In this document: positions 22,870 to 62,094 of the stretch, in pieces | How the letters are laid out: every line of letters begins with the position of its first letter | Position numbering within the stretch: position 1 is the stretch's first letter | Assembly (NCBI GenBank): GCA_046331685.1 | Contig: JAXLQI010000003.1 | Coordinates: 102,960-166,959 of the forward strand | DNA length: 64,000 nt | Reading direction: 5' to 3' | Source of the DNA: Candidatus Micrarchaeia archaeon | Lineage (GTDB): Archaea; Micrarchaeota; Micrarchaeia; Anstonellales; Bilamarchaeaceae | Position numbers and translations under genes: made by a program | The notes under the pieces: generated by a model | What the model saw: the letters and a program-made list of their open reading frames with translations, nothing else | Databases searched by the model: none | What the model was told of the DNA's origin: nothing

Positions 22870-22994
22870 TCCCGTCGGCCTGACTTGAACAAGCAACCTC
22901 ACCGTTTCCGCCTTTTGGAAAGGCGGCCCAAAACTCGTCAAACCGAGTAAAGGCAAAACTACAGCGGTGCGCTCTACCATTGAGCTACGACGGG
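22870..22994 (-). tRNA. tRNA-Tyr(GUA) with a 53-nt canonical intron at 37/38
   Basis: Acceptor CCCGUCG/CGACGGG. D-arm GCUC-AAUGGUA-GAGC. Anticodon stem CACCG/CGGUG with loop CUGUAG|intron|A. T-arm GCUUG-UUCAAGU-CAGGC. Confidence 0.8.
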
Positions 22995-39300: not shown

Positions 39301-42300
39301 ACCATCCCGCTGGACTTGAGCGTCGCATCCGATCCGCTGATGTCGCCAGCGATCGCGAGGTCTCCGGCTTTCTTGGACAGAATCATCCTCCCGAGGACGA
39401 CGGCCACGAACTCCTTCTCGGTCTGGACGCCGGTCCCTGCCACCGATGGGGTCTTGGTCCCGAAGCCGATAGATATGTCGTATCCTTCCACGGTCGGAAC
39501 AAGGACATTATCAAGCAGCATATCGAAGTTCTGGGCCGCCTTCATCAGCCTCTCCCTCTGGTCCGGGGAGAGCCTCTCCAGCGATTCGAATCTCAGGCCG
39601 TCGACCGTCTCCTTGGCGTCCAGGCCCACCCTCCAGAAGAAGATATGGCCCGCATCTTTCCCCGCCTTCTCTATGTCTTCCTTGTTGCCCTCCTTGGCAT
39701 CTCCGAACATGTAGGATGAAGTGAGCAGCATCTCGGACCTGCTTACCGACATCACTTCCTTGCCGAAGTTGATTTTCCTCGGGACGCGCCTTCCATGCTC
39801 GTCCACAGCTGAATAGACGGATATGTAAGTGCTTTTCTGGGGGCCGGTCTTGAAGTCGCCGGTGGTGTGCTCGTAAACGGTCGCCGTGACCTCTTTGTTG
39901 GTCTTGAGGGCAGTGAGGAATGTCTCGTCGTTGTCCAGGGCGGTCATCGCATCCTCAAGGCAGATCGCGCTCATCTCCCTCGCGGCTGTCGATGTGTCGT
40001 ATTCGAGCTTGAAATACGGGAGCTTCATCCCGGTCCTCTTCTCATACTCCTTCGCGATCTCTGCGAAATCCTCGGCCTTCTCCAGCCTTCCGAACTCAGA
40101 AAGATCGCCTTTGAGCATGAACCGCTTGCCCTTCTCTATGAACGCTTTTGCGAACTCCCTTGCGGCCGTCCTCTCCTTCTCCTTCCCCACCGTTTCACGG
40201 TATTTCTTGTCTGCCGCTTCCAGGACCGGAGGATTCTTCTCTCCTGCGAGGATCGAGTCCACAGCCTTATGGTTGGCGCTTGCGGTTCCCTCCCAATCCT
40301 TCTCGCTCCGCTCGTAGCTGGCGCCGAGCTTGTCGAGCGGGGATTTCAGGGCCTTGTTCCTCTCATCCCTCAACTTCACGGCATCGTCTTTCTCTACGAC
40401 CCCATACGGGGCCTTTTCCAGGAACGCGCCATCCACGCCCGCCTTTTCATCACGGGCCTTCCACTTGTTGAAATCAGATGTGGCGGCTTTGATCCCGTAT
40501 CCCTCGGCCATCTTGGCCTTGAACATGTCAGATTCGAGCGTCCTGAATCCTTTCCTCGCTCCGATCACATCTCCTGCCTCAGCGGCATCGCTGAGGGCCA
40601 TGAGCCTCTTGCCATAGAACGATGTATTGAAGTATGGGAGCCTGCCTTTCTCGACGACGTCCTTGATGGAGCCTTTCTCATACGCTCCGGCCCCGGGCAC
40701 CGGGATGGATTCCAGCATCAGCCTCGAAAGGAGCTTCTCCCTCGCTCCGAGCCCGTCCTTGCCCGGAGGGATCATCGCGAGCTCTTTCTCATATCTGTAC
40801 CTGCTGTTCGGGTCAGGTATCAGTCCGACCAGCACTCCGAGCTCAGGGTTCCCGATCGTCCCACGGTCTCCTCCTGCGAAGAACTTGATCCCGTTGTCGG
40901 CATAGCCCTTCTTTATATCGTACTCGTCCAGGTGCATCTTCGCCCCCTGGAACCTGATATCGAAATTCGTGTGGACCTTCGCCGAATATGTCTCGGCATC
41001 CGCGAACCGCTCGGACCAGTTGAGCGAGATGACGGTGGAATGCTTGGTCTTGTAGCCGTTGAGGTCGAGCCATTTCTCCCCGCGCTCGTCCGTGGTCTTG
41101 ACGCCCTGCGATCCGGTGAGGTCCTCATACAGCTTCTGCAGTTTTGCCGGATCGTCGCCTGCGGCCGCAAGGCGGTCGCCTTTGCCGTGGTATGAGACGA
41201 GGTCGTTGTAGAGCGCTTTCAGCTTCCCCTGGTCTTCGCCCGCTTCTGCGTACCTCTCTGAGAAGACCTCCTTCATGGGCTTCTGCCCTTCCCTGAGGTA
41301 AGTCTCTTTCGGGAAGTTCGCGATCATATCCCTGACCAGGAGCTTTGTAAGGACGCTCTGGACCCTGCCTATGTCCTTCTTGAAGGCCTCCTGCTCGAGC
41401 CATATCGCTCCGTCACGCTGTTTCTTTATCTTCTCCTCACGGGAGACCAGCTCGCTGCCCGCTGCGTTCAAGCCTATGCCCCGCTCGACAAGCTTCTTCT
41501 TCCTCTCGGCGGTCAGCGGCACCGGCTTCGAGTCCGCCCCGATGAGCTTCTCGCCTTTCTCATCGGCATCATGGCCTTCGCCGATCGCGAGGAACGTCTT
41601 CGCGGCAGCGTCGAGCTCGGCCCTCCCGCTCTTCTTGTTTATGGTGTCTATCCTGGTGACGCTCTTGTGGAGCTTGGCGAGAGAATCGGCCGCCGCGTCC
41701 GCGCTCAATCTCTTATCATTTCCGCTCGCTATGAGCGATGTTATTTCTTGGTCTAAGAGTGACTTGTATAAGGCGTTCCGAAGCTCGTCGGCCTCCTTCG
41801 CCTTGCCCTCTTTCCCGAGCGAATCCGCTTTCTTGAGAGCGAGATCGACCTTCTCCTTCATCTCCGGCGGAAGCCCGCTCGAGAGTTCGTCGGTCCTCTT
41901 CCTCACGAACGCCGGCCCGGCGTCATCCGCCGCTTCGTACTCCTCTTCAAGGTCGACCGACATCAGCAACTCGGATGTCCCTTTTTCGCGGAGGGCCGCT
42001 GCCCTGCCGACCGAGCTTGTCATGGACACGAAGTCCGAGCCTTCCGAAGCATATTTCTTCTTCATCGCCTCGCGGTCCTTCTCGGCCCCTAGTATCGCGA
42101 TCCCTTTCGAGTCGCCGGCAGCTTTTTCCTGGAGGAACGAATCCCGGGTCAATTCGTGCCCCAGCTTGACCGCTGATTTAATCCCGGCTGCTTCGACAGC
42201 GTCTTCCAGCTCTGCCTTCGTCGGTTCCCTTCCGAGCTCTTTCTTCAGGCTCGCCTCGGTCTCCGCCCTCTTCTCCTTCCCGAGGGCTTCAGTCACCGAT

Positions 42301-45300
42301 CCTCCTGCGAGTATGGCTTTCGCGAGCGGCGCGTCTATGGCGCCTTCGGGCGGCTTCCAGCCTTTCGGTCCGATATCGAGGATCCTTTTGCCTCCAAGGG
42401 TATTGTTGGCAGAATATTCCCCGAGGTATCTCTCTGCGCGGACCATCCTTTTCGTGCGTTCTGAAGCTCCTTCAGGGCTCAGCTTGCCTTCATCCATGGC
42501 CGCGTCCTTGGCGTACATCGCCGCCATGTCGAATATTATCTTGGCCTCCTTCTTCAGCCCGGAGCCCGCGGTCCTGATCGCAAGGTCGAAATACGCCTGG
42601 GCATTCGTCTTCATCGCCGGATTCGTTATCTTCGCCTCCAGCTCGGTCCTCTCCTTGTAGATGGATAAGACGAGCAGGTCCGGATCGTTGAAGACAGGGA
42701 TGCCTGGCAGCTTGGAGTTGGCCTCTCCCACCCTCGCTATCGCCAGCACCCTTTCCCGGTCTTCTTTCTTCACGCTGAGATATATCTCGGCGATGTTCTG
42801 GAATATCATCCCGTTCTCCAGGTCCCCGGACATGATCCTCCGCGCAGAGCTCCCCAGCATCTCCAGGACCGCTTCCTTCTGGTCCTTGGGCGCGGCAGGA
42901 TTGAGCATCTCGCTATACGACTTGACGAGTTTCTCCATCGCCTTGACGCGTGATAACTCTTCCCTTGCCGCAAGATCAGCGATCGTCAGCTTCTTCTCCT
43001 TGAGGTACTTCTCGACCGCGCCCTTGAACTCCGGGTCCTCTGCCATCTGCTTCTTTATCTTCGCTTCAGAGGCCGCGATATCCTCCTTCGATATGCGGTC
43101 TTCGCCCTTGACAAGGCGGTCCTTCTCCTTCTTCAATTCACCGATCAGCCAGCCGAGCTCAGCTTTCCCGGGAGCCTTCTCGCCCATCGATTTATGGGCC
43201 TTGGTCAGCTTGATCAGGTTCCCTTCCAGTATGAGATAGCCCCGGGCGATGACCTCGGCAAGCTCGGGCTTCTTCGATATCACGGCGATGACCTGCTTGA
43301 TCTCATTCTTCTGCTCTGGAGTGCCTTTGGAGAATCGCAGAGCGAGCACCGCGATTGAGTTCATCGCCCCTTTATCCCAGTCCTTCAGGTATCCTTCCAT
43401 CCCCTTATCGAATATCGCTGCCGTCTCGCTGAGAGCCGGCTCTTTGATGCCGGACAGTATGTCCTTCCTGACCTTCCCGACGAAACCCAGGATCGTCATG
43501 CCCTTCTCTATCGCCTCTTTCGTCGCCTTGCCCGGTGCCTCAAGAGGCTTGAGCGCCGCTTCTATCCCATCTTTGATCTCCTTGGGCAAGGTCTTATCGA
43601 GAAGGATCTTTTTCAGTCCGGAGACTATCTCGGCGGCGAGTTTCAGTTCATCCGCCGCAGGAGCTTTGGCTTCAACCGCTGCGGGTTTGGGGGCAGTGGG
43701 TTTGACGGCCGGTTCTTTTGGTTTTGCGACCGGTCCTGTAGGGACTACAGTGGGGGGAGTAACCGCCGGCCCTTTGGGCACTGCAGCCGGAGCCTTTGGA
43801 GCCTCAGGAGCAGCCTTCTTCTCCTCGGGCGCAGGAGCGAGCTTGAATCCAGGCCCTTTTGAAGGGGGCTGCATCTTCGGCAATGGAGTGTGGTACGGTT
43901 TCCCTTCCTCCAGCTTGTCCGCTTTCTTCTCGCGCTCCTCCTTGCCCTTCCCTGCGTTCCTGAACGACTCGGCGAGCGCCTTTACCCTCGGGTCGTTCCT
44001 GTCCTTTATCCCGAGGGCCCGCATGGCGGCTTCTTCGACGCTGAACCCCCTCCCCACCAGCCACTCCATGTTGCGGAGGTTCATCCCATCTTCGAGATTG
44101 GAAGACATCTTCTCAAGGGCGCCGGCGACCTCCTTGTCCCCGCCTTTCTCCGCGTATTTCTTCCCCAGCTCGTACTGCTTCACGGCGGTATCCATCCCGC
44201 CGCCGCGGAGCACGCAGTCCAGGGCGCGTCCGAAGATCTTCATCGCGCCGTCCTTTATCTCCTTGGCTTTGCCGGCGAGCTTGCCTTCCGAGTCGAATAT
44301 CTTGCCGACAAGCTCCGAGGCGAACGTCATCTTCTCTAGCTCGGCGATCGTGGCTGGCGGTTTGTCCTTGAACATCTTCGCGATCGCTTCGGCTTTCGCT
44401 TTCAGTATGCTGTCTTTGAACCCGGCAGCGGCTTCGGCGGCTTTCTTCTGGTATTCCGCCCCGACAGCCGAGACCGCCTGCGCCACGGTCTTTTTCCTCT
44501 CGGAGAGGTCCTTGCTTATCTCATCGAGCTTTTTCCGCAGCTCCCCTTTGGCCTCGCTGTGCCTGGCGAGGATCGTCTGCTGGAGCTTCGCTGTCTCGAT
44601 GAGGCTCTTGACCGCCTCGGCGCGCTTCTCCTTCGTCGCGCCGGCCTTGCCGAATGAATCTATCAGGCCTTTGACCCGAGGGTCGTTCTTGTCCTTTATG
44701 CCGAGGACCCTCATCGCGGCTTCTTCCGCGCTGAGGCGCTTCGCCGGATCGGTGTTGCTGACATGCCTCTCCATGGCGGCTATGTTGTGCGCCAGGCTCA
44801 GGGCGGCTAGGCCGCGGGCGAAGACCGCGACGCTTTCCCTGGCCTCCTCGCCGGTCTTGTCCTTCAGGATCTTGAGGGCGTTCTTGACGTAGTCTATCTT
44901 CTCTTTCGTCTCCTCCTTATCCTCTTTCCCTGTCTCCTCCTTCTTTTTCTTCTCTTCCTCGAGCTTCTTCTCCAGCGCTTCCAGGTCGTCCTTGAGCTTG
45001 CCTAGCTGCTCCTTCGCGGATTCCTGCATCGCGCTCATCATGAGGGCGCTCACCATCCCCTGGAAGGCGAGCACGGTCGCGGTCTCCGGGCTTCCGCCGC
45101 TTATGGCCGATTCGACAGCGCTGGTCTGCCGGTTAATGCCGTCCATCCGTCCGGCATGGGCCTCCACATGGGCATTTGCCTCGTCGGTGTTGCCGAGGGG
45201 GTGGCTCGACATGGTGAGGACTTCCTTCTCCACCCTGGCTGCCAGAGTCGGATCTGCGCTGAGGGCCTCAGGATGGTCGGCGATGTGCTCGACCGCGTTC

Positions 45301-45812
45301 AGGGTCGCCCTTCCCAGCGAGAGATGCGCCGCCCTCTCGGTCGGGTCGTCTGAGAGCCCCGCGAAGTTCCAGAAATTGTTCCGGAACATGTCTATCGTGC
45401 CCTGGGGGGCTCCTGACGCCTCGAGGATCATCTCGCCCCTGATCGTCCTGCCGAGGCCGATGATGGCCATCCTGAGGTCAGCCCCGTCCCTCTCGGCAGC
45501 CGCCATATCCCCGGACTTGATGTGGCCTTCCCTCCGGAGAGCGATGTCTTCGATCGTGGCGAGCTCCCTGCCATGGGTGGACCGCATGTTCTCGGGGACG
45601 ATGGCCTCCACCCTTGATCTTATCCCTGCGGCATCGGGAAGGCTGGTCCCGAGGCTTCCGGCAGCGCTCGAGAACCGGTCGAGCATGACCCTCGTAGAGG
45701 CGTCGACGGATCCTATGTTGGCTTTCGAGGCAGCGAGACGGTCGGGTGTCAGGTCGAGCCCGCCGAATTGAGGGTGGCTCGATCCGGGCGTATCCATCGT
45801 CTTCTGCGCCAT
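30348..45812 (-). CDS. Giant protein of about 5,150 aa, of unknown function. It is rich in K/E/A low-complexity and probable coiled-coil sequence, with internal repeats, Pro-rich linkers, a central hydrophobic cluster and globular regions with no family I can name.
   Basis: A single uninterrupted 15.6-kb ORF in a GC-rich genome. The track start at 45998 overlaps the upstream gene. The Met at 45810-45812 (MAQKTMD) lies 5 nt after the upstream stop. There is no N-terminal signal peptide. Confidence 0.85.
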   Translation of the reverse strand: MAQKTMDTPGSSHPQFGGLDLTPDRLAASKANIGSVDASTRVMLDRFSSAAGSLGTSLPDAAGIRSRVEAIVPENMRSTHGRELATIEDIALRREGHIKSGDMAAAERDGADLRMAIIGLGRTIRGEMILEASGAPQGTIDMFRNNFWNFAGLSDDPTERAAHLSLGRATLNAVEHIADHPEALSADPTLAARVEKEVLTMSSHPLGNTDEANAHVEAHAGRMDGINRQTSAVESAISGGSPETATVLAFQGMVSALMMSAMQESAKEQLGKLKDDLEALEKKLEEEKKKKEETGKEDKEETKEKIDYVKNALKILKDKTGEEARESVAVFARGLAALSLAHNIAAMERHVSNTDPAKRLSAEEAAMRVLGIKDKNDPRVKGLIDSFGKAGATKEKRAEAVKSLIETAKLQQTILARHSEAKGELRKKLDEISKDLSERKKTVAQAVSAVGAEYQKKAAEAAAGFKDSILKAKAEAIAKMFKDKPPATIAELEKMTFASELVGKIFDSEGKLAGKAKEIKDGAMKIFGRALDCVLRGGGMDTAVKQYELGKKYAEKGGDKEVAGALEKMSSNLEDGMNLRNMEWLVGRGFSVEEAAMRALGIKDRNDPRVKALAESFRNAGKGKEEREKKADKLEEGKPYHTPLPKMQPPSKGPGFKLAPAPEEKKAAPEAPKAPAAVPKGPAVTPPTVVPTGPVAKPKEPAVKPTAPKPAAVEAKAPAADELKLAAEIVSGLKKILLDKTLPKEIKDGIEAALKPLEAPGKATKEAIEKGMTILGFVGKVRKDILSGIKEPALSETAAIFDKGMEGYLKDWDKGAMNSIAVLALRFSKGTPEQKNEIKQVIAVISKKPELAEVIARGYLILEGNLIKLTKAHKSMGEKAPGKAELGWLIGELKKEKDRLVKGEDRISKEDIAASEAKIKKQMAEDPEFKGAVEKYLKEKKLTIADLAAREELSRVKAMEKLVKSYSEMLNPAAPKDQKEAVLEMLGSSARRIMSGDLENGMIFQNIAEIYLSVKKEDRERVLAIARVGEANSKLPGIPVFNDPDLLVLSIYKERTELEAKITNPAMKTNAQAYFDLAIRTAGSGLKKEAKIIFDMAAMYAKDAAMDEGKLSPEGASERTKRMVRAERYLGEYSANNTLGGKRILDIGPKGWKPPEGAIDAPLAKAILAGGSVTEALGKEKRAETEASLKKELGREPTKAELEDAVEAAGIKSAVKLGHELTRDSFLQEKAAGDSKGIAILGAEKDREAMKKKYASEGSDFVSMTSSVGRAAALREKGTSELLMSVDLEEEYEAADDAGPAFVRKRTDELSSGLPPEMKEKVDLALKKADSLGKEGKAKEADELRNALYKSLLDQEITSLIASGNDKRLSADAAADSLAKLHKSVTRIDTINKKSGRAELDAAAKTFLAIGEGHDADEKGEKLIGADSKPVPLTAERKKKLVERGIGLNAAGSELVSREEKIKKQRDGAIWLEQEAFKKDIGRVQSVLTKLLVRDMIANFPKETYLREGQKPMKEVFSERYAEAGEDQGKLKALYNDLVSYHGKGDRLAAAGDDPAKLQKLYEDLTGSQGVKTTDERGEKWLDLNGYKTKHSTVISLNWSERFADAETYSAKVHTNFDIRFQGAKMHLDEYDIKKGYADNGIKFFAGGDRGTIGNPELGVLVGLIPDPNSRYRYEKELAMIPPGKDGLGAREKLLSRLMLESIPVPGAGAYEKGSIKDVVEKGRLPYFNTSFYGKRLMALSDAAEAGDVIGARKGFRTLESDMFKAKMAEGYGIKAATSDFNKWKARDEKAGVDGAFLEKAPYGVVEKDDAVKLRDERNKALKSPLDKLGASYERSEKDWEGTASANHKAVDSILAGEKNPPVLEAADKKYRETVGKEKERTAAREFAKAFIEKGKRFMLKGDLSEFGRLEKAEDFAEIAKEYEKRTGMKLPYFKLEYDTSTAAREMSAICLEDAMTALDNDETFLTALKTNKEVTATVYEHTTGDFKTGPQKSTYISVYSAVDEHGRRVPRKINFGKEVMSVSRSEMLLTSSYMFGDAKEGNKEDIEKAGKDAGHIFFWRVGLDAKETVDGLRFESLERLSPDQRERLMKAAQNFDMLLDNVLVPTVEGYDISIGFGTKTPSVAGTGVQTEKEFVAVVLGRMILSKKAGDLAIAGDISGSDATLKSSGMVSFTDKGEISDSDAKTKGLKSEMGDIGARYAFGKAAGTFAGDMILGAATGGAYFVVTGVKGVAEAYEEAERSGKWSTELYIRAGLSAVGAVVPIGHRIAALKGLTFLAAAEAPAGGLAKAGYYAYKGATWGLEKSMFYGGAGEFLVFQAPKIYDAYKKGEMGWQGLVFTGMSGASTSVLLPWAQARVSKRMALSVHEGGVPKYSSRASQFTQILFGFRSEFMSVEEHAAAKELAGFRKSMGGAGESYAKVMSGKNPIEVRAGISEMSKAAEGLPPESKKLMLDLEAGHLSKMMTAGEMPHLLYSSARNEGKGPAEAFKEATAPSPDFVIRYTEARSKGKSPEAAFSEAKSPAKTFVKGEALSKLKEALAKKKAGGVTKPEAAVAEAPKPEAVEKIAPSETEARTKSLTDAYNEYSKSGKVPPEFSGKAEFFKVIKASELSPADLSYELGMEAARDVKSGGPKIEPVKQTIEAKPVLSTGEKALDEVGKNAIEKLVGEGVSPETAAKAVEGQKAAAKAYAEMAKGNKPPATELDEQFTAAIKEEAAKQGAPLEKAAFELIGEMTKEAISLKLKASKNPVDIAASEFAKGRAESEGREPADEDYLAGALLKKGIGKPENLAKALDALEKKGKYDIGLRLSAIANSEALSKLAPEPSKAPELKAKIEKAALENEDVWELTNKISDALHGAGIELEAGSATTRAIGLLTSDLASMIGKGEITFANQKIPAGSKVKKVRFIFAAQGAFEITVETPGKEKVAFIAKAQDLSAEKLGSTLAEKHAGIAAPEVITGHGGKELSLFDRGRRARFGIMQHMGYHEGDAKAGGKIIHEKTESAMAIEQFSKFVEANPALKKMRAENPELFWKLVMKEYGYTQTGLMSVGFSDGHHGNIWAMTRRVSKEDAAHLEKLGHLVVSDEKGAMVLRFGRIDTDSGAAFLAKESGGKLDFGELHESYGTELRGTMDVLLQMQLTDLGPSGKTYKTLFTESFSSIKEGAKAWHEEIGKSPGFVDGVEKALTSNAGTPIGIGLNAKLTMGQKAALAKRREAFLKGEEAPAEAAAELHDVDEMFRIEGKNFINGKKNVPMDTDGRTILTADAATVFKELYKTNSEDPGGFAAKTWDSIRMEMAATIPGMETAPVAAPVAIEPTLKSGIKPGGVEPGTAKPIEPAPMKEPSPAAKYPEPVPSAKPKTPSEMLFERSNKLTDQASILRAEGKHAEADAVESDIVALRKAAKKLEGRTDPASWTEAEGISSKAVPKPKEPPPAMEKISEYKKNIEGVDSDGIAAARLEIESGSPKLTDLLKVAEGSLRMRGDISMSEAEARLAEWAKTGDPRSSSVEAIRKNGLVKNVFESADPVTRAVIADFLLKAAPGESVSTSIGKAYSHLLAGGTAEGLAEFSGSIFTKPSGKFIIDSIRATDPYLAWKLDHMILENNPMMKLRMAMEWFRGAKELGHLKKIDEAKAALPPGEEFGAIAAYTKKNGQDPALMKEIYGEGGSEGRLNVLDAFGIDISSFRKDRDGIIELKRWVEHTEGQVAGMADGDPKKAELADKVGPHRIRLESETFEYDSKVKVFLDLIVRGGLPARIAAIPGFGGKKISSVEPLSGLRGIFKVKMSDGRSIFVKPEDMLPVKFGEELAASKGLVPPETLHGYAYDTGLMVDGKPLMQDYGISLDIHDLASPKTGHSETTITLPDGSLVKAYEGKKVMASLPSDGKTENVTVLGVAMFRDEVLKKPDADNAAAAMFYKLAQTKEGREKIFKAWNTYHELSRRILLMDRFDRNTTVMLVRRASGEVELTFQPIDMDGIGARIGSKEGKPDFTDFNRDFADATSGMLIDMASALDKAASIKMGNGKDLFQGEVPAAKAMMAELLGEKAGLDLKADKLAPSDLKSPVKPIVEAHEGKPFGLGFDTTSPNAPKVGSLFIHGGRVRTVERVDGRVHLYGDEILALMDAARRDQAEYVEGLKGAVERRIKETAKTPIGTEEDKTPVMAKKVATPAGLPLAAGAEEFTAKPPKKQPEATPALGKKKALAVEPPVPAEEAKTPLAKKPAPPPEEVVEKTAPAKKAPPVPVPESASVEELAKKAPIPTGFEKTEPAAPPKMAPEETPAEALVKAGGWKGRMHNGLPLLSGEEYDQLFAIKSEKGLAKTFDFQGYAETAEGIRYFDRLTTNDPRGIHVGTDGVMSYDMPFGAKSMKEIGEYDIHVKIPAGIQKNEGVVVAYDRVIPIHEYLKTHTGDVSPKEANEDATKTQKEEHFVVIRLPGKVIPGTRDLVRQLHLDIIWYLGKKRPVSGLNDFINERWEELRYGPAEGTVAGKGGAAKTGKLPAPKIAEPAALPPPPGGEGPEPAATGKGFKPKEISETPMVVTEEDLITPVVPPKEKSAGPKEISKTPMAVKESELITEPSAYADELLAAPDTVLPPGMVFAGKSKIMTSMSEKIDAFEFDITVGDKSERVGIPARKSPRVRMLEGIEDLVGGGMTKDRVGKIAGTLEHFVENLKAGFTLAEVTKDYPEYRDAVKKIAEKLDHGGNAVKEETLRQSRVIYYERELEIKRHAIEDAARVKGLAEEFDKLGKAAITGFMVVSSDYFEMLIIKDQHPDWTTIEIATEHLRLSRSGMKPKLPAPKPVEKESPDVAYSRLVESEFKAQSRFKSIDSFRADLESSVPEDLLTIGHSFKDVKKMAELEKALMDFATKHTAKKLSKAQLQLIINKNAGIFGVESVAIDKQIPITEGFGVSPLEHVVERVFLSTDAIVSHYPDKSRVYLWRDGAAFMVVDGTIASRKGHKMPKGALITRTSLGKDFFENDAHNISDMVFKANQYAYSVFKASADPKTATVASMQTDLFGHFMNSLRLQIKSAMHMDPQFKANCEKLLSYLAKSGITDPSKKKVFDGVLVDTGYKTLLPFTKALLEVKYGKRVNVDISYYWVAPGYEYLPHVGVAGDDVDMIETCGDQRSFIKGAKDYYNVETHDPLSVFNSFVYMLLLKERALRKP

Positions 45813-45817
45813 ATGCT

Positions 45818-46153
45818 TCACTCGGGCCGGATGCCCTCCGCTATCCTGACCAGATCCCGGAGCCTTTGGATGCGGGTCTCGAAAGTATCCGTGAACTTTG
45901 GCTTGCTGGCCTCCCACCCCTTCAGGGCGTCCAGGGCTTTCTGGTACCTCTCGAAATTCTTCGCGAGCTCCGGGGGCTTCCCGCCGGATGCTTTCCATGC
46001 CGCGAGCGCCTCCTCGAGCTGGGCGATCATCTTCTTCACCCGTTCGCGGGTCTCGGCTTCGACCTGGCCGATCGTGGATTCGTTTATCTTGGGGTTGAGG
46101 GCTTCGGCGACCAGCGAATTCTCGTATCTCTCCAATTCCTCTGGACTTGCCAT
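45818..46153 (-). CDS. Hypothetical 111-aa helical protein, first gene of the giant-gene operon
   Basis: MASPEELERYENSL... with charged, helical composition. Its stop lies 5 nt before the giant-gene ATG. Confidence 0.5.
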   Translation of the reverse strand: MASPEELERYENSLVAEALNPKINESTIGQVEAETRERVKKMIAQLEEALAAWKASGGKPPELAKNFERYQKALDALKGWEASKPKFTDTFETRIQRLRDLVRIAEGIRPE

Positions 46154-53665: not shown

Positions 53666-54583
53666 ATGCATTTTCTCACGCTCAAGGATTTCGATGGTGA
53701 ATGGATCGAGTCGGTCATCTCTCTCGCCATCGCGATCAAGAAAAACCCGGCCAGATACCGCTCGGCGCTCGGGCAGAAGACGCTCGCCATGCTTTTCCAG
53801 AAGACCTCCACGCGCACCCGCGTATCGTTCGAGACCGGGATGACACGGTTGGGGGGCCATGCGATCTACATGGACTGGCGGAGCACGCAGTTCGTTCTGG
53901 CTGAGCTGCAGGACGAAGCGAAAGCCGTGTCGCGCTACGTCGATGCGATCATGGTCCGTCCGCTGAGGCATGAGACCCTGCTCGAGATGGCCAAAGGCAG
54001 CGAAGTCCCGATCATCAACGGCCTGTCAGAGAAATACCACCCATGCCAGGCTCTCGCCGACGTGATGACGGTCAAGGAGAGATTCGGGGCGCTCGAGGGC
54101 AAGAAGGTCGTTTACCTCGGGATAGCGAACAATGTCAGCAATTCGCTCTCGCTCGCCTGCGCCAAGTGCGGTGCTGATTTCGTCCTGTGCACTCCAGAAC
54201 GGGACTCCGACAGCCTGGACACCGAGCTTCTGCTCCAGGCGAAGACTACCGGCCACTATTCACAGACCACGGATGTATCTGCCGTGAGGGGAGCCGATAT
54301 CCTCTATACCGATACCTGGGTGAACATGGAATATTTCTCCGACCCCAAGTTCGCGAAGGAGAAGGCGCGGCGCGAGAAGCTGCTCAAACCATACCAGCTC
54401 AACAGGAGACTCCTCGAGAGAGCCGGCCCGCAGGCCTGTTCCATGCACGACATGCCCGCGCACATCGGCTATGAGGTAGACGAATACTGCCTGCGCGGCC
54501 CCCGTTCGCTCGCCTTCGTCCAGGCCGAGAACCGGATGTGGGCGCAGATGGCGCTCCTGCTCAGGCTCCTCGGCGCCGAGTGA
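53666..54583 (+). CDS. argF: Ornithine carbamoyltransferase (aspartate/ornithine carbamoyltransferase family)
   Basis: STRTRVSFE carbamoyl-phosphate motif, HPCQALAD and an OTC-like N-terminus. 305 aa. Linked to carAB. Confidence 0.7.
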   Translation: MHFLTLKDFDGEWIESVISLAIAIKKNPARYRSALGQKTLAMLFQKTSTRTRVSFETGMTRLGGHAIYMDWRSTQFVLAELQDEAKAVSRYVDAIMVRPLRHETLLEMAKGSEVPIINGLSEKYHPCQALADVMTVKERFGALEGKKVVYLGIANNVSNSLSLACAKCGADFVLCTPERDSDSLDTELLLQAKTTGHYSQTTDVSAVRGADILYTDTWVNMEYFSDPKFAKEKARREKLLKPYQLNRRLLERAGPQACSMHDMPAHIGYEVDEYCLRGPRSLAFVQAENRMWAQMALLLRLLGAE

Positions 54584-54625: not shown

Positions 54626-55510
54626 TTGTTCGTAACTGTTTTGTCCGACAAACCCGAGCTGCGCGAGAGGTTCTGCAAGGCGGTCGGAGCCGAATCCGGG
54701 AAGAACGAGCTGGGCTTCTATTCTGCAGAGCACGAAGGGAAGAAGATGACGCTGATAGACCCGGTCCATTATCCCGAGAAGATACAGCCTCTGCTCTATT
54801 CCCTCTCCATGGCGGATTACGTCGTCGTCCTCGCTGACGGCGTCACCCCGAAGCTCGGGGAGATCATCGTGGCGGTCAATTGCCTGAAGCTCGACAAGGG
54901 GATAATCGTCTCCTCCTCGCCCCTCCCGCTCGCCGGGACCACGCTGGAGCGGTTCGAGAGATGCGCCGATATAGATTCGGCACGGATCAAGCTCCTCTCC
55001 CTCAGCAAACCCGAATACGGGGAAAACCCGATCGCGTTCGTCGACCGGATGGAACCGGTCAAATCTCTCGGGAATGTCGCCTACGGCATATTGAAGGGCG
55101 GGACCCTGAAGGTCCATGACAAGCTCTTCCTCCTCCCTGAGAAGAAAGACCTGGAGGTGCGGAGCCTCCATGTCGCCGGAGCTGAGGTCCAGGAGGTATC
55201 GGCAGGGCAGATGTTCTCCATGGCCTACAAGGGCGAGGCTTTCGAGCGCGGGGTCGTCGTGCCTCTCCACAACGAATTCGAGGTCGGCAACATCATCAAC
55301 GGCAGGTTCTCCCGCTCACCTTTCTTCAAGGACGAGCTGAAGGGCAAGATCCATGCGTACTCTAATCTGCAGTTCATCGAAGGGCACATGAGCGAAAACG
55401 ACCTCACATTGAGCCAGCCGATTGCCTACGAGAAAGGCGACCTGATGCTGGTGGTGGATGCGAGCAACCAGAAGCTTCGGATAGTCGGCCCGTTCCAGAG
55501 CAAATGGTGA
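54626..55510 (+). CDS. Degenerate translational-GTPase (EF-1alpha/EF-Tu-like) paralog lacking a P-loop
   Basis: Residual G3/G4-like motifs LIDPVHY (DxPGH) and NCLKLD (NKxD) with no GHVDHGKS. A domain II-like beta-barrel segment KVHDKLFLLPEKKDLEVRSLHVAGAEV. Confidence 0.45.
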   Translation: MFVTVLSDKPELRERFCKAVGAESGKNELGFYSAEHEGKKMTLIDPVHYPEKIQPLLYSLSMADYVVVLADGVTPKLGEIIVAVNCLKLDKGIIVSSSPLPLAGTTLERFERCADIDSARIKLLSLSKPEYGENPIAFVDRMEPVKSLGNVAYGILKGGTLKVHDKLFLLPEKKDLEVRSLHVAGAEVQEVSAGQMFSMAYKGEAFERGVVVPLHNEFEVGNIINGRFSRSPFFKDELKGKIHAYSNLQFIEGHMSENDLTLSQPIAYEKGDLMLVVDASNQKLRIVGPFQSKW

Positions 55511-55511: not shown

Positions 55512-56030
55512 TCAGCTATCGAGCCCGGCGATCCCGGTCACGGTGTTCCAGTTCCTGGTAGTGACGACCTTGCCGAACTCCTTATCCAGCATCCCCATGA
55601 TGTCAACGGTCTTCGCCGCAGGGGACAATACGGAATAAATCTCGCTGCCTGCTGCCCGCATGCTGTACGTGCCGTCGCCGCGTTCCTTTGTCTTCGGCCT
55701 AGCGCCATCAGGAAGGAAAGTGACATACAAACGCGTCCCGGGCTCGTCCTTGACGCCTTTGAACGGCTCGCCCGCCACCATCTCCTTCAAACTATCCATC
55801 GCCCGCAGGATGACCCGCGTCTCGCTCCCGATCAGCTTGTGGAGCCCGCTTTCGATTTTTTTTGTGTTGGCTTTTTCGGAACCGGAAGCATCGAAGATCA
55901 CGTTGCCGCTCGCCTTGAACGTGGAGACGTCATTGTACCCGAGAGATTCGAACATCTTGCGCAGGGCATCCATCTTCACCGTCTTCCCGCCCACATTGAT
56001 CCCGCGTACGAAGGCTACGTAGGTTGTCAT
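55512..56030 (-). CDS. DUF1697 family protein
   Basis: N-terminal VAFVRGINVGGKTVKM and overall DUF1697 pattern. 172 aa. Confidence 0.7.
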   Translation of the reverse strand: MTTYVAFVRGINVGGKTVKMDALRKMFESLGYNDVSTFKASGNVIFDASGSEKANTKKIESGLHKLIGSETRVILRAMDSLKEMVAGEPFKGVKDEPGTRLYVTFLPDGARPKTKERGDGTYSMRAAGSEIYSVLSPAAKTVDIMGMLDKEFGKVVTTRNWNTVTGIAGLDS

Positions 56031-56093
56031 ACCGGCAAATCGGTTCGCGAACTATTATAAATTCCCCCGTGCCTTATAGGTTTCTGATTCTTC

Positions 56094-57170
56094 ATGAGCG
56101 GCGGTAAACGGGCAGTGTTAGTGTTGCAGGACGGCACGGTCCTCCAGGGCCTTGGTTTCGGAGCGGAAGCAGAGAGGATGGGGGAGCTTGTTTTCAACAC
56201 TTCCATGATGGGCTACCAGGAAGCCCTTACCGATCCCAGCTATGGCGGCCAGATACTGCTGATGACCTACCCCATGGTCGGCAACTACGGGACCAACAGG
56301 ACCGACCAGGAGAGCGCAAAGGTGCATCCGAGCGGATTCGTAATACGGGAGCTGAGCCGGGACCCGGAGCACCGTGATTCGGTCGCGGACATTGATTCTT
56401 TCCTTCGCGGCAACGGCGTGCCCGGCATATGCGGGATAGACACACGGTTCGTCGTCCGCCGCATCCGCGACAAGGGTGTCATGCCGGCGATCCTCGCCGT
56501 GTCATCCAAGGAGGGCGGTCCCGACCCGAAGAAGCTTGGGAAGAAGCTCGAATTCGACTACTCGTCCATTGATTTCGTGTCGAAAGTGTCCACGGAAAAG
56601 CCACAGGTGTTCGGGAAAGGGAAAAAGAAGGTCGTCCTCATGGATTACGGGGTGAAGATGGGGATCGTCCGCGAGCTCGTCGCCCGCGGCTGCACCGTCC
56701 ACATGCTCCCGAGCTCGAGCTCTGCCGAAGACGTGAAAGCCCTCGAGCCGGATGGGATAATGCTCTCCAACGGGCCAGGCGACCCGGCGATACTCAAGGA
56801 GGCGCACAAGACGATAAGGGATCTTGAGGGCTATCGGCCGGTCTTCGGAGTGTGCCTCGGCCACCAGCTCATCGCCCACGCTTTCGGCGGAGACACGTAC
56901 AAGCTCAAGTTCGGCCACCGCGGCTCAAACCATGCCGTCTTGGATGTCAGCACAAATAAAATCGCGATAACCACGCAGAACCACGGCTACGCGGTAGGGA
57001 AGATCCCGGCGGGGTTCGAGCTCACGCACATCAATGTGAACGACCGGAGCGTGGAAGGAATGGACTGCGAGAAAAAGCGGATCTTCTCGGTCCAGTACCA
57101 CCCGGAAGCATCCCCAGGGCCTCATGACGCCAGATACCTATTCGATAGGTTCATCAAGATGATGGAGTGA
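56094..57170 (+). CDS. carA: Carbamoyl-phosphate synthase small (glutaminase) subunit
   Basis: CPSase small N-domain plus class I glutamine amidotransferase. GVCLGHQ catalytic Cys. 358 aa. Confidence 0.9.
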   Translation: MSGGKRAVLVLQDGTVLQGLGFGAEAERMGELVFNTSMMGYQEALTDPSYGGQILLMTYPMVGNYGTNRTDQESAKVHPSGFVIRELSRDPEHRDSVADIDSFLRGNGVPGICGIDTRFVVRRIRDKGVMPAILAVSSKEGGPDPKKLGKKLEFDYSSIDFVSKVSTEKPQVFGKGKKKVVLMDYGVKMGIVRELVARGCTVHMLPSSSSAEDVKALEPDGIMLSNGPGDPAILKEAHKTIRDLEGYRPVFGVCLGHQLIAHAFGGDTYKLKFGHRGSNHAVLDVSTNKIAITTQNHGYAVGKIPAGFELTHINVNDRSVEGMDCEKKRIFSVQYHPEASPGPHDARYLFDRFIKMME

Positions 57171-57174
57171 TGGT

Positions 57175-57627
57175 ATGACAGAAAAGAACGAAGGACCAGC
57201 GAACAATGTGAAGTGCAGTTTCTGCGGAAACGACACATGGTGCGAGCAGTGCCAGCGCGAGCCGGGCAAGGCCACGGGGATGGAGCACATCTGCTACGAC
57301 TGCTTCCAGAAGATGGGGGGCGTGCTGCCAGATAACGTCAAGGACAAGACGCACATCTGCATCCCCCCGGAGAAGCTCCAGGAGAACTTCGAGAGGTTCC
57401 TCAGCGAGATGACCCACAGGGCTTTCATGGACCTCTGGGACGCCGAGAAGAAGAAGCTCAAGGAGATGTCGCGCCAGGAGCTCGCGCAGGCGGCCTTCTT
57501 CGAAGGGGCCAGGTTCATGTTCGGATTCATGCAGAAGATGTCCCAGGACAACGAGCAGCGCGCGGTCGACGAGCAGGCCGAGAAAGTTGTTAAGGAAGAG
57601 ACGAAATCCGAAGAAAAGAAAGAGTGA
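57175..57627 (+). CDS. Small Cys-rich (zinc-ribbon-like) protein inserted between carA and carB
   Basis: 150 aa. CSFCGNDTWCEQCQ....HICYDCF is followed by a K/E-rich helical tail. It starts 4 nt after carA and ends 7 nt before carB. Confidence 0.5.
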   Translation: MTEKNEGPANNVKCSFCGNDTWCEQCQREPGKATGMEHICYDCFQKMGGVLPDNVKDKTHICIPPEKLQENFERFLSEMTHRAFMDLWDAEKKKLKEMSRQELAQAAFFEGARFMFGFMQKMSQDNEQRAVDEQAEKVVKEETKSEEKKE

Positions 57628-57634
57628 TCTCGCA

Positions 57635-60600
57635 ATGGCATCAGGTAAGCTGAAGAAGGTCCTTGTGATCGGGTCAGGTCCGATCGTGATAGGCCAGTCC
57701 GCCGAGTTCGACTACTCAGGCGCCCAGGCATGCAAGGCCCTCCGCGAGGAAGGCATCCAGGTCGTTTTGGTTAATTCAAACCCGGCCACCATCCAGACCG
57801 ACAAGGATATCGCCGACCTTGTCTATATCGAGCCGCTGACCACGCCGGTCCTGGAGAGGATAATCGAGCGCGAGAAGCCTGAGGCTCTGCTTGCGACGAT
57901 GGGCGGGCAGACCGCCCTCAACCTCTCGATGGACCTCCACCGCAAGGGCATCCTGAAGAAGCACGGAGTCCGTTTCCTCGGGACCGACGCCGAGGCTATC
58001 GATGTGGCGGAGTCCCGGGAGAAATTCAACCGGCTGATGGAGCGGATCGGCATCCCCATCCTGCCGGGCAAAGTGGTCACAGATGTCCCTGCCGCGGTCG
58101 AATTCGTGAAGGGGATCGGCTACCCGGTCATCATCCGCCCCTCGTTCACCCTGGGAGGCACCGGGGGCGGGACGGCTTATGACGACTCCGAACTGAAACG
58201 GATCCTCGAGTTCGCCCTGCGCCTCAGCGCCACGGGAGAAGCCCTTGTCGAGAGGAGCGCGATCGGCTGGGGGGAATTCGAGTACGAGGTCGTGAGGGAC
58301 TCGGCAGGGAACGCCCAGATCATCTGCAACATGGAGAACATCGATCCGATGGGCGTCCATACCGGGGAGAGCATAGTCGTCGCCCCATCCCAGACGCTCA
58401 GCGATGGGGACCACCAGAAGCTCCGGGACGCATCACTGAAGATAGTCCACGCGATAGGGATCCAGGGGGGCTGCAACGTCCAGCTCTCCATGGACCAGGA
58501 GACCGGCGATTACGTTGTGATAGAGGTGAATCCGAGGCTCTCCCGTTCCTCCGCGCTCGCTTCCAAGGCCACAGGCTACCCGATCGCGAGGGTGGCTACG
58601 AAGATCGCCCTGGGCTTCAGCCTGCCGGACATCAGGAACGCGATAACAGGCACTTCGGCGGCTTTCGAGCCGGCGCTGGATTACTGCGTGGTCAAGATCC
58701 CGAGGTGGCCTTTCGACAAGTTCCCGCGCACCTCCAGAGTCATCGGGACGCAGATGAAAAGCACAGGCGAGGTCATGGCGATAGGGCGGACTTTCCCAGA
58801 GGCCCTCCAGAAAGCCGTGCGCAGCCTCGAAGTGAAGATTCCGAAGGGGATGAACCCGGATGAGCACCTCTTCCCCCCCACCGACCTGCGCCTCTTCGCC
58901 ATGCTTGAAGCGCTGCGGCGCGGAAGGCCAGCTGAAGAGCTCCATAAAATCACGAAGATAAACCCCTGGTTCATACGGAGGATGGAGGAGATCGTGAGGA
59001 TGGAGGGCCGCCTTCGCTCGGAGAAGCTCGGGAAGCAGCTCCTCCTGGAATCGAAGCGGCTCGGCTTCTCGGACTCGCAGATCGCCGCCCTTTGCGGGGT
59101 CGGGGATGAGCTCGCGGTGAGGAAGCTCCGCAAATCCGCCGGAATCGTCCCGACCTACAAGATCGTCGACTCATGCGCCGGCGAGTTCGAGGCTCTGACG
59201 CCGTATTTCTACTCCGTCTATGAGAGCGAGAACGAAGCGGTCCCCATGGGCGGGCGGAAGGTCGTGGTGATAGGCTCCGGGCCGATCCGCATCGGCCAGG
59301 GCATCGAATTCGACTACTGCTGCTCGCACGCGGCCTTCGCGCTCAGGGAACTGGGATACAAGAGCATCATGATAAACAACAATCCCGAGACCGTCAGCAC
59401 AGACTTCGATTCAAGCGACCGGCTTTATTTCGAGCCCCTGACTTTCGAGGACGTCATGAATGTCATCGAGAACGAATCGCCGGAGGGCGTCATAGTCCAG
59501 CTCGGCGGGCAGACCAGCATCAACCTGGCCGAGCCGCTGGAGAAGGCAGGGGCCAAGGTCCTCGGGACCCACACGGACGGGATCGATATCGCAGAGGACC
59601 GCGAGCGCTTCCGGGCGCTTGCGAACAGGCTCAGGATCCCCCAGCCCCAGAACGGCACTGCGGTAAGCGAAGGCCAGGCCCTCGAGGTGGCGGCAAGGAT
59701 CGGTTACCCGATAGTCGTCCGCCCGAGCTATGTGATCGCAGGGAGGGCGATGGAGATCGTGAGGAATGACGCCGAGCTCCGCCGATACATAGGGGAGGCG
59801 GTGGATGTGAGCGAGAAGCGCCCTGTCCTTATAGACAAATACATCGACAACGCCATCGAGTGCGAGGTCGACGCCGTGAGCGACGGCAAGGATGTCTTCA
59901 TCGGCGGCCTGATGGAGCACATAGAGCCTGCAGGCGTGCACTCCGGGGATGCGAACATAGTCCTGCCGTCCATGCGCCTCTCGGCCGGGGAGAAGAAGAC
60001 GATCGACGAGTACACCCTGAAGATCTCAAGGGCCCTAGGCATCGTGGGCCTTGTGAACATCCAGTATGTGGTCAAGGGAGGCGTCGTCTACATCCTCGAG
60101 GCCAATCCGAGGGCGAGCCGCACCGTCCCGTTCGTCAGCAAGGCGATCGGGCTGCCCCTCATCAAGGTCGCAATCAAGGCGATGCTGGGAGCCAAGGTCC
60201 CCAGGCATAAGCCGAAGATGGATCACTTCGCGGTCAAGAGCGTCGTATTCCCGTTCCTCAAGCTCACCGGGACAGACACCAAGCTCGGGCCTGAGATGCG
60301 CAGCACGGGGGAGACCATGGGCATCGGGCGGTCGTTCGAGATGGCATACTACAAGGCCCTGCTCGCGGCCGGGATCAGGCTCGACGACACGAAGGAGCAG
60401 AACGCGTTCATCAGCCTCCGCGACGAGGACAAGATCCACGTCAAGAAGCTCGCAGACCTCCTCGACAAGCTGGGGTTCACAATCTACGGCACCCTCGGCA
60501 CTGTCGGGAGCATACCCGGAGCGATCACAATCCCGAAGATCGGGCAGGGACACCCTGATGTGGTGGAGCTTATAGAATCAGGCACGATCAACCTTGTCGT

Positions 60601-60781
60601 CAACACCCCCACGAAGGGGGGTGGATCGCATACCGACGGATTCAAGATGCGCCAGGCGAGCATCCATAACGGCATCCCCTGCATCACCAATCTCAATACC
60701 GCCTACGAGCTCCTTCGCGCGATGGCGGAGCTGAAGAAGAAAGACCTCGATATACGCCGCGTCGAGGAATACGCGGGCTGA
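57635..60781 (+). CDS. carB: Carbamoyl-phosphate synthase large subunit
   Basis: Two ATP-grasp halves, an oligomerisation domain and an MGS-like domain. Start set at MASGKLKKVLVIGSGPIVIGQ rather than the upstream in-frame Met. Confidence 0.95.
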   Translation: MASGKLKKVLVIGSGPIVIGQSAEFDYSGAQACKALREEGIQVVLVNSNPATIQTDKDIADLVYIEPLTTPVLERIIEREKPEALLATMGGQTALNLSMDLHRKGILKKHGVRFLGTDAEAIDVAESREKFNRLMERIGIPILPGKVVTDVPAAVEFVKGIGYPVIIRPSFTLGGTGGGTAYDDSELKRILEFALRLSATGEALVERSAIGWGEFEYEVVRDSAGNAQIICNMENIDPMGVHTGESIVVAPSQTLSDGDHQKLRDASLKIVHAIGIQGGCNVQLSMDQETGDYVVIEVNPRLSRSSALASKATGYPIARVATKIALGFSLPDIRNAITGTSAAFEPALDYCVVKIPRWPFDKFPRTSRVIGTQMKSTGEVMAIGRTFPEALQKAVRSLEVKIPKGMNPDEHLFPPTDLRLFAMLEALRRGRPAEELHKITKINPWFIRRMEEIVRMEGRLRSEKLGKQLLLESKRLGFSDSQIAALCGVGDELAVRKLRKSAGIVPTYKIVDSCAGEFEALTPYFYSVYESENEAVPMGGRKVVVIGSGPIRIGQGIEFDYCCSHAAFALRELGYKSIMINNNPETVSTDFDSSDRLYFEPLTFEDVMNVIENESPEGVIVQLGGQTSINLAEPLEKAGAKVLGTHTDGIDIAEDRERFRALANRLRIPQPQNGTAVSEGQALEVAARIGYPIVVRPSYVIAGRAMEIVRNDAELRRYIGEAVDVSEKRPVLIDKYIDNAIECEVDAVSDGKDVFIGGLMEHIEPAGVHSGDANIVLPSMRLSAGEKKTIDEYTLKISRALGIVGLVNIQYVVKGGVVYILEANPRASRTVPFVSKAIGLPLIKVAIKAMLGAKVPRHKPKMDHFAVKSVVFPFLKLTGTDTKLGPEMRSTGETMGIGRSFEMAYYKALLAAGIRLDDTKEQNAFISLRDEDKIHVKKLADLLDKLGFTIYGTLGTVGSIPGAITIPKIGQGHPDVVELIESGTINLVVNTPTKGGGSHTDGFKMRQASIHNGIPCITNLNTAYELLRAMAELKKKDLDIRRVEEYAG

Positions 60782-60816: not shown

Positions 60817-62094
60817 ATGCTCTCACTGGAAAAGCGGTCCTCCGGGTCTTCGCATCGTCCGTGCCGGGCGTTCCTCACCGCCGCGCTCGCAATCTCAATG
60901 CTTCCATCTTCCTGCAGCGGCAGGGTCAACGGGGACGAACGCTCCTCCTGGCTGCCCGCCGTGCGCGTGGACGTGGCAAAGAACGGGGCTCCGCCAGAAG
61001 CGATGCCGATATATGCGGGCATCGACGAGCGGAATCTATACGGCGTCACTCATTATTTCGACAGATACACGGAGATCCCGTCCGGCGACCTCGGGAACAA
61101 GGCAAGGGTGGTCCGGCTCATAATAGAGAAGCTCTCGGAATCATTCGACCTGCGCTACGAGACCGGCGGCAGCATCCTGCGCAACGACGCGTTCATCTTC
61201 ATGGACAACCCCGGAATATGGCCGAGCGCCGTGTATATGAAGGATGCGGCGGTCATTGGCCGGATGCAATTCCTCTCCAAAGACGGATCGACGATAGCTG
61301 ACTGCGGCGCGGGTGACTGCCCGATACGCGACCTCATAGCACTCAAGCTCTCAGGCTCTTTCAAGCCTTCGTCTGATACCCTCTCGGGCCTCACCGAATC
61401 CGAATACGAAAGCATCCGATCCTACTCTCGGGACCTCAGCGAAGAGGTCCTCCACGACTACTACAACGAGTGGCTGTCGGAATCCGAGCGCTCCCTATTC
61501 GTCACCCGTTTCAGCTCGCTCTGGGAGACGGTCTCCATCGGCAAGGACGACGATGGAGTGTTCTCGGAGGCATGGAGGAGCGGCGGGATAGCGTTCGCTA
61601 TAGACGAGAGCGGCGCCATCAAGCCTTATATGCTGAAGGTCCCGGTGACCACAGCGATCTCGGAATTCTGCCCGTCCTGCACACCAGCTGAGGTCCATTC
61701 AGCCGAGATCGCGGCCATCTCGTTCATCCAGGTCATCGGGGCGCAGGCCAGCTCGTTCATGGGCAGCAGCCAGAACTACCTGGGGTTCTACATGTCACAG
61801 GACGCATCGCAGGGGAAGCCGGACGAAGGTTACGGACACTACCGAAAGGTTTTCATCGAGCGCGAGTCATATTCCCATGTAGGGAGAGGCGAGAAAACCC
61901 GCGTTGCTTACCCAAAATTCCTCCGGAGCATGTACGAGCCGTTCTGCAGGTCCGCCTACCTGGACAAGATTTTCAGCGACGGGCTCAAATCCGAGCCGGC
62001 GGTCTCGGCGAATCCCTACCTCTCGGATTACGACAGCTTCCGCGCCCTCGTCTCCTCGCTGATCCCGCTAGTCCTCAAGCACGCCAAAGGCTGA
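60817..62094 (+). CDS. Secreted lipoprotein, hypothetical
   Basis: Signal peptide with a Cys lipobox-like SMLPSSC. 425 aa with protein-like composition. Confidence 0.45.
   Translation: MLSLEKRSSGSSHRPCRAFLTAALAISMLPSSCSGRVNGDERSSWLPAVRVDVAKNGAPPEAMPIYAGIDERNLYGVTHYFDRYTEIPSGDLGNKARVVRLIIEKLSESFDLRYETGGSILRNDAFIFMDNPGIWPSAVYMKDAAVIGRMQFLSKDGSTIADCGAGDCPIRDLIALKLSGSFKPSSDTLSGLTESEYESIRSYSRDLSEEVLHDYYNEWLSESERSLFVTRFSSLWETVSIGKDDDGVFSEAWRSGGIAFAIDESGAIKPYMLKVPVTTAISEFCPSCTPAEVHSAEIAAISFIQVIGAQASSFMGSSQNYLGFYMSQDASQGKPDEGYGHYRKVFIERESYSHVGRGEKTRVAYPKFLRSMYEPFCRSAYLDKIFSDGLKSEPAVSANPYLSDYDSFRALVSSLIPLVLKHAKG

Follow-up and report, generated by a model that had tools for sequence, protein, structure and literature searches.

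A conserved cysteine-rich protein encoded between carA and carB in Micrarchaeota, a possible accessory factor of carbamoyl-phosphate synthetase

Few multi-subunit enzymes have been studied as thoroughly as carbamoyl-phosphate synthetase (CPSase), which is seen as a machine of two subunits. The gene for PurS, a small protein without catalytic activity, adjoins those of a class-I glutaminase and of a large ATP-dependent synthetase subunit (purS-purQ-purL), and PurS is needed by the FGAM synthetase complex. RbcX is a helical assembly chaperone of about 15 kDa; its gene lies between rbcL and rbcS, and it is dispensable in some lineages. PyrI, a protein of about 150 amino acids with a four-cysteine zinc domain, regulates the carbamoyl-phosphate-using enzyme aspartate carbamoyltransferase, and its gene belongs to the operon of that enzyme. 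The carA and carB genes of Pseudomonas aeruginosa and Xanthomonas citri flank an ORF that is transcribed together with them. The Xanthomonas ORF is 444 bp long and overlaps the end of carA, and the two ORFs are reported to be unrelated to each other and of unknown function (PMC4619228). The N-terminal domain of ClpX and the protein CsfB are small protein-binding, dimerizing zinc modules (PMC5890618).

The window analyzed here is a stretch of 64,000 nucleotides from a metagenome-assembled genome (MAG) of Candidatus Micrarchaeia, which is GC-rich (59%). In it, an ORF referred to below as X lies between carA and carB. The features of the locus are as follows.

53666..54583, forward strand: argF, ornithine carbamoyltransferase (NF001986 at 310 bits, TIGR00658 at 292 bits)
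56055..56062, forward strand: TATA-like TTATAAAT, located roughly 35 nt ahead of the carA ATG (sequence 55981-56100)
56094..57170, forward strand: carA, glutamine-hydrolysing CPSase small subunit, 358 aa, with CPSase_sm_chain and GATase domains (TIGR01368 at 457 bits)
57164..57171, forward strand: SD-like GGAGTGAT across the final codons and the stop of carA, 3 nt ahead of the X start codon
57175..57627, forward strand: X, an ATG-initiated ORF of 150 aa between carA and carB, with its TGA at 57625-57627 (from the ORF list and the sequence)
57205..57363, forward strand: zinc module of X, residues 11-63, with nine conserved potential ligands (C14, C17, C23, C26, H38, C40, C43, H60 and C62)
57364..57549, forward strand: helical hairpin of X, residues 64-125, with helices at 65-97 and from 100 onward; pLDDT about 90
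57550..57624, forward strand: C-terminal tail of X, approximately residues 126-150, variable, acidic and of low complexity, K/E-rich in the window; pLDDT 53-58
57622..57629, forward strand: SD-like GAGTGATC across the stop codon of X, 5 nt ahead of the carB ATG (read from the sequence)
57635..60781, forward strand: carB, CPSase large subunit, 1048 aa from an ATG that agrees with homologues (NF003671 at 1467 bits)

The earlier note on this DNA had placed the ORF 4 nt downstream of carA and 7 nt upstream of carB, and both its coordinates and its flanks are confirmed: the carA TGA occupies 57168-57170, 4 nt from the X ATG, and the X TGA is separated from the carB ATG by 7 nt. These gaps are too short for separate signals, and X is encoded in the carAB operon. 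Alignments of carB homologues begin at residue 5 of the product. CarA and CarB are full-length and carry all of their usual Pfam domains. Models of aspartate carbamoyltransferase score below their cut-offs on argF, which is the upstream member of a cluster that recurs in the order argF-(EF-like)-carA-X-carB. A GATGTGAT/GGTGAT-type (GGAG/GTGAT) SD-like motif is found at the same spot before the X ATG, overlapping the carA stop, in 20 or more related loci. The TTATAAAT element is a possible archaeal promoter for a carA-X-carB transcript. Many X proteins, both in the window (57600-57627) and at the equivalent spot in related loci, finish in ...E(E/G)KK(E), at the point where the X frame shares its sequence with the purine-rich ribosome-binding site of carB. 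The two functions of this stretch, as coding sequence and as carB ribosome-binding site, may have shaped the end of the tail.

Other genes of the window were noted along with the operon. The EF-like gene between argF and carA (54626-55510, forward strand) encodes 294 aa; its sole match is to EF-Tu domain 2, with weak similarity to SelB and EF1A, and its N-terminal part resembles a G domain that lacks the P-loop. It holds the argF/carA position in 10 of 25 GTDB loci, as well as in this window and in locus L100, and a relative with 28% identity lies directly upstream of a distant X in L073. A DUF1697 gene (55512-56030, reverse strand) lies between the EF-like gene and carA and diverges from the putative carA promoter; among the other fetched loci it was detected only in L004, where it is duplicated. 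Immediately after carB lies an ORF of 425 aa (60817-62094, forward strand) with no match in Pfam or NCBIfam, which is kept at the same position, at 31-43% identity, in L008, L012, L013, L014 and L024. Farther away are a single open reading frame of 5216 aa (30348-45998, reverse strand), presumably a giant protein; a 5S rRNA gene (880-994, forward strand; Rfam, 66.5 bits); a 66-nt tRNA-Asp(GTC) found by ARAGORN only (13930-13995, reverse strand); and a 125-nt Rfam tRNA match missed by ARAGORN, probably an intron-containing archaeal tRNA (22870-22994, reverse strand).

X is a real gene under purifying selection. The earlier note had named absence of the ORF from close relatives, combined with a lack of expression or of a ribosome footprint, as grounds for dismissing it; a search of 5.8 billion protein clusters returned 70 homologue clusters with 51-100% identity. 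All homologues with a taxon name come from MAGs labelled Micrarchaeota, Micrarchaeia, Bilamarchaeum or 'ainarchaeum', and the window protein is 100% identical to NCBI hypothetical protein U0R44_04510 (Candidatus Micrarchaeia archaeon). Pairwise dN/dS values over the whole ORF are 0.09-0.25. In an alignment of 40 sequences, C14, C17, C23, C26, E37, H38, C40, C43 and H60 are invariant, as are the helical residues A83, F84, W88, K92, S99, Q101, F109, E110, G111, A112, F114 and M115. The AlphaFold2 model has pLDDT values of at least 88 in every 10-residue block from residue 11 to 120, and consists of the zinc module (11-63) and two long helices (65-97 and 100-147), with low confidence after about residue 125. 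GC-rich DNA yields many long spurious ORFs, several of which are visible around this locus, and X might on that account be taken for a chance ORF or annotation artefact of a genome with 59% GC. That explanation is effectively refuted by the conservation data, that is, by the 70 homologue clusters, the 113 cluster representatives from a search of 1.84 billion proteins, the low dN/dS, the invariant ligand pattern, the confident models and the conserved start context. No family was assigned to X in Pfam or NCBIfam, where the best Pfam E-values were 0.05 or worse, and literature searches found no description of the gene. X defines an undescribed protein family.

The N-terminal cysteine cluster is present as first described (C14/C17, C23/C26 and C40/C43), and H38, H60 and C62 can be added to it, giving the pattern C14-x2-C17-x5-C23-x2-C26 ... 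H38-x-C40-x2-C43 ... H60-x-C62. This cluster, called zinc-ribbon-like in the earlier note, is better read as a two-site treble-clef/cross-brace finger. In the model, a beta-hairpin knuckle carries the first CxxC and a short helix has the third at its N-terminus, which is a treble-clef arrangement, and the zinc module modelled alone from 51 sequences gave a pLDDT of 88.7 and a pTM of 0.71. C14/C17 together with C40/C43 would form putative site 1, and C23/C26 together with H60/C62 putative site 2. Because this two-site cross-brace is derived from the order of the ligand pairs and not from model coordinates, we infer it rather than observe it. The finger is predicted to bind two zinc ions, and probably does so. 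All four ligand pairs are conserved in the Micrarchaeota clade; C26 and C62 are replaced in distant relatives.

The profile search of the cysteine motif proposed in the earlier note yielded sub-threshold similarity to the ClpX C4 zinc finger and no family at cut-off. Hits to zf-C4_ClpX (PF06689) below threshold were obtained for 8 of 61 family members, the best at E = 0.0013, more than for any other zinc-finger family; the gathering score was reached by none of the 61, and the window protein itself had no match. A profile search of the PDB with the X family gave ClpX chains at E = 0.46-0.89. With hhalign, the N-terminal profile of X matched five ClpX zinc-binding domains (ZBDs) at 93% probability and P = 3e-7, a comparison of a short Cys-rich motif in which three of the five ClpX sequences were approximate; controls against alignments of CarA, CarB and ArgF gave P = 0.6-0.9. 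The X fold does not superpose on solved ClpX ZBD structures. Faint matches were also seen to the RBBP6 RING (E = 0.49, noise level) and, in 2 of the 61 members, to HypA (E = 0.068). A match to a viral Rep protein (PDB 9pqq, E = 0.063) overlaps an apparent Rep HUH motif and was judged coincidental.

The remainder of the protein had been described as a K/E-rich helical tail. This applies to the variable tail from about residue 126 to 150, whereas residues 64-125 form a conserved helical hairpin. The signature residues of the hairpin are A83, F84, W88, K92, S99, Q101, F108/F109, E110, G111, A112, F114 and M115, and its consensus is F..W...K..LKEMS+QELA..FFEGARFM. The hairpin has no match in Pfam, NCBIfam or the solved structures of the PDB. 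It is the only part kept in every family member: complete proteins of 84-100 aa that consist of the hairpin alone occur repeatedly in the family, some in-operon copies are without the zinc module, and in L101 a hairpin-only ORF of 94 aa lies between carA and carB. The persistence of these copies indicates that the hairpin is the core module and the zinc finger is optional. Tails in relatives are His-rich or P/Q/G/S-rich, and the last 25-70 residues cannot be aligned among the 40 sequences; 11 of the 40 tails contain at least five histidines. The median pI is 5.3 for the whole protein, 5.45 for the zinc module and 6.8 for the hairpin, and this acidic character is more in keeping with binding to protein than to nucleic acid. 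A relation to DksA/TraR or to GreA-like coiled-coil factors was considered and rejected, as neither sequence (zf-dskA_traR) nor fold supports it.

Micrarchaeota X is a fixed third gene of the carAB operon. A scan of one representative genome for each of 185,579 species found 25 loci with an X relative, all of them in Micrarchaeota-type MAGs. The synteny comparison suggested in the earlier note thus places X between carA and carB consistently: carA is directly upstream in 25 of 25 loci, and carB is downstream in all 23 of the loci that extend that far. argF is upstream in 19 of the 25, either directly or across the 294-aa EF-Tu-domain-2-like gene. No member of the X clade was found outside the carAB operon in the 185,579 species genomes. 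In most loci X starts at a distance of -1 to 13 nt from the carA stop, and the SD-like motif lies inside the 3' end of carA. Divergent copies with 35-40% identity also lie between carA and carB (P0071 in L097, P0072 in L094 and P0073 in L098), and the same gene order is found on the short metagenome contigs L003, L019 and L029.

Six further CarA homologues, on contigs outside the X hit list, were examined. Four of these loci contain X (L094, L096, L100 and L101, the last in its hairpin-only form). X is missing from the other two, the related Micrarchaeota-type operons L095 and L099, in which carA and carB overlap by 4 nt and neither X nor argF occurs within the fetched locus; X is therefore accessory and not obligatory, and CPSase works without it. 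According to the earlier note, carA and carB are normally adjacent or overlapping; an intervening ORF is not unprecedented, as the Pseudomonas aeruginosa and Xanthomonas citri operons show (PMC4619228). Five columns of CarA and two of CarB separate lineages with X from the two X-less sequences, and form no obvious docking-site signature; with so few columns and only two X-less sequences, they were set aside as too weak to serve as evidence. In Bilamarchaeum dharawalense (L001), two extra Cys-rich ORFs lie between carA and X, at 7316-7636 and 7633-7998. They encode 106 and 121 aa with several CxxC pairs and are unrelated to X, and the 121-aa ORF belongs to no Pfam family; their presence suggests that the carA-carB junction repeatedly accepts small zinc-finger genes. 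Two irregular loci, X split by a frameshift in L026 (6001-6377) and carB in many short ORFs in L100 (5534-8099), probably reflect assembly or long-read errors and not pseudogenes.

The wider family is broader than the carAB operon. A profile search of 1.84 billion representative proteins gave the 113 relatives, counted as cluster representatives; about 30 of these were inspected by sequence and carry the C-x2-C/hairpin signature of the family, with Woesearchaeota as the sole source name. Among 61 diverse sequences, C14, C17 and G111 are invariant and C23, C40, C43, F84, W88 and F108 are at least 90% conserved. A metagenome scan for the distant subfamily, made with a 14-sequence subset of the alignment, yielded 62 loci, most of which have no carA, carB or argF nearby. 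Neighbours of distant X genes include a type IIG restriction-modification enzyme, PRiA4_ORF3, a WYL-like protein, AAA ATPases and seryl-tRNA synthetase, among others. The distant X often overlaps the stop of a variable upstream gene, and it is also found fused to PRiA4_ORF3, HEAT repeats or UPF0175. As most distant members stand beside unrelated genes, the basic activity of the family cannot be specific to CPSase. Carbamoyl-phosphate genes do occur among the neighbours of distant X: carA-X-carB on L029, carA-X on L091, argF 10 nt before X and no carAB on L030, and argF...EF-like-X on L073.

PRiA4_ORF3 (PF07929) is a second recurrent partnership of the X family. Its gene adjoins X, or is overlapped by X at its end, in L032, L034-L037, L053 and L057, and the two are fused in P0139. 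Several distant X genes adjoin restriction-modification or WYL-type genes, although searches with the PADLOC defence models gave no meaningful match. In P0164 (L029, 30-974) the C-terminus of CarA runs in frame into X with no stop codon. This was not relied on as a Rosetta stone fusion: the same 1.26-kb contig has a frameshift in X, the intact relative P0092 begins with a Met of its own, and the read-through may be a sequencing error rather than a true CarA-X fusion.

The reading that we favour, with a probability of roughly 40%, is that X binds proteins as an accessory factor to CPSase or to carbamoyl-phosphate metabolism, its client being either CPSase or the pair of CPSase and ornithine carbamoyltransferase. 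It is favoured because X in Micrarchaeota is locked in carAB, coupled to carA and never found elsewhere, while the activity of the family is not CPSase-specific. X would be an acidic protein of about 17 kDa, co-transcribed and translationally coupled with CarA and CarB, in which the aromatic-rich conserved hairpin would be the working part. The hairpin would dock on CPSase or on the CPSase/ornithine carbamoyltransferase pair, and docked X would act as a non-catalytic third component that supports assembly or stability or adjusts activity. The N-terminal finger appears to be of the ClpX-ZBD/CsfB/PHD-like type, which normally serves protein-protein contacts or dimerization; finger and variable tail, the latter acidic or His-rich, would be optional additions that may recruit a partner or sense metal. 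A functional link with CPSase had been proposed in the earlier note. It fits the conserved carA-X-carB position, but X is not obligatory there and its wider family occurs in unrelated contexts. Moreover, a gene that stands between two co-translated subunit genes is not easily lost or relocated, and conserved position is therefore weaker functional evidence here than usual. A bolder form of the proposal, offered as speculation, is that X through its FFEGA hairpin would be a third CPSase component, either an assembly or stability factor stoichiometric with CarA or a scaffold that hands labile carbamoyl phosphate to ornithine carbamoyltransferase, and that the wider family would be a portable DPANN adaptor with different clients in each lineage.

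The main rival to the accessory-factor reading, which we consider somewhat unlikely, is that X is a passenger trapped in the operon. It would have a general role, as in its distant relatives, would have landed once between carA and carB, and would stay there because moving it breaks the co-expression of the subunits. The many unrelated contexts and fusions of the distant relatives agree with this, as do the existence of X-less carAB operons and the completeness of CarA and CarB, from which no domain is missing. In Pseudomonas and Xanthomonas, too, carA and carB flank unrelated ORFs with no known CPSase role (PMC4619228), and the two unrelated Cys-rich ORFs inserted at the same spot in Bilamarchaeum indicate that the junction tolerates insertions. 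A passenger would be less expected to show what is seen in Micrarchaeota, where close copies of X outside carAB were found in 0 species genomes, tight translational coupling to carA is conserved and even the hairpin-only form is retained between carA and carB; independent distant loci also put X beside argF or carA.

Two other roles were weighed. As a regulator specific to the operon, X would bind carAB/arg mRNA or promoter DNA and autoregulate in response to arginine, pyrimidines, metal or redox. Small zinc-finger proteins are commonly encoded within the operons they control, the hairpin tip carries a conserved basic stretch (EKKKLKEMSR/KQ, residues 90-101), and the location of family members downstream of many different genes fits a portable regulator module. 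We nevertheless regard this role as improbable, since the median pI values given above are acidic to neutral for the whole protein and for each folded module, no DNA- or RNA-binding family matches X in Pfam or NCBIfam, no fold match to a nucleic-acid binder rises above noise, and some in-operon copies do without the zinc finger. Less probable still is a role in metal handling, in which X would buffer, chaperone or sense zinc or nickel and its expression would be tied to carAB by chance. The nine conserved Cys/His residues of the N-terminal module would suit it, as would the His-rich (HEHKHE...) tails of 11 of the 40 close relatives and of some distant or hairpin-only proteins (P0080, P0129). 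Such tails are missing from most members, however, the X of the window included; zinc-less versions hold the operon position; and the HypA matches are faint and few. CPSase and ornithine carbamoyltransferase are not known as zinc or nickel enzymes, which also counts against it.

A conserved third gene across a whole archaeal lineage would indicate a new layer of CPSase assembly, regulation or substrate channelling. In very small genomes, every gene that is kept is expected to matter. For a family of 113 cluster representatives whose core has no match in Pfam, NCBIfam or the PDB, the carAB operon of Micrarchaeota is the best handle on function.

Among described proteins, the finger of X weakly resembles the ClpX ZBD and the anti-sigma factor CsfB. 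It appears to share with them the signature 'CSFCG(K/N)' ... '(H/Y)-x-C-x-(D/E)-C' and a treble-clef with the first CxxC in a beta-hairpin knuckle and the second where a helix begins. It differs in the longer spacing of its Cys pairs (22 residues versus 18) and in its extra conserved ligands, which suggest a second metal site. Unlike ClpX, X is a stand-alone protein of 150 aa from an archaeal host, in which the finger is followed by a helical hairpin and no AAA+ ATPase/unfoldase is attached. The four ligand pairs (C14/C17, C23/C26, C40/C43 and H60/C62) are in an order compatible with the two-zinc cross-brace of PHD and RING fingers and of HPV E7 CR3, and PHD and RING fingers are protein-protein interaction modules; the spacing and the final H-x-C pair of X fall outside the PHD and RING consensus, there is no Pfam PHD/RING match, and the scores are at noise level. 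PyrI was considered as an analogue of X and rejected, since X has no PyrI match in Pfam or NCBIfam and the neighbouring transferase is ornithine carbamoyltransferase and not the aspartate enzyme; the order of domains in PyrI is also reversed relative to X. Derivation of X as a split-off piece of CarA, CarB or ArgF was likewise rejected, given the hhalign P of 0.6-0.9 and the complete domains of CarA and CarB.

The remaining comparisons concern role and gene position. PurS is an analogy of role only, with no relation in sequence or fold: it replaces a domain found in large PurL, whereas the CarA and CarB beside X are complete and some related carAB operons are without X. RbcX resembles X in the position of its gene and in size, but has no homology to X, no zinc finger and no fold match. 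The carA-orf-carB operons of Pseudomonas and Xanthomonas were compared with X by position and size. Their ORFs match X in position, and that of Xanthomonas is nearly equal to it in size; their hosts are bacterial, whereas X is archaeal.
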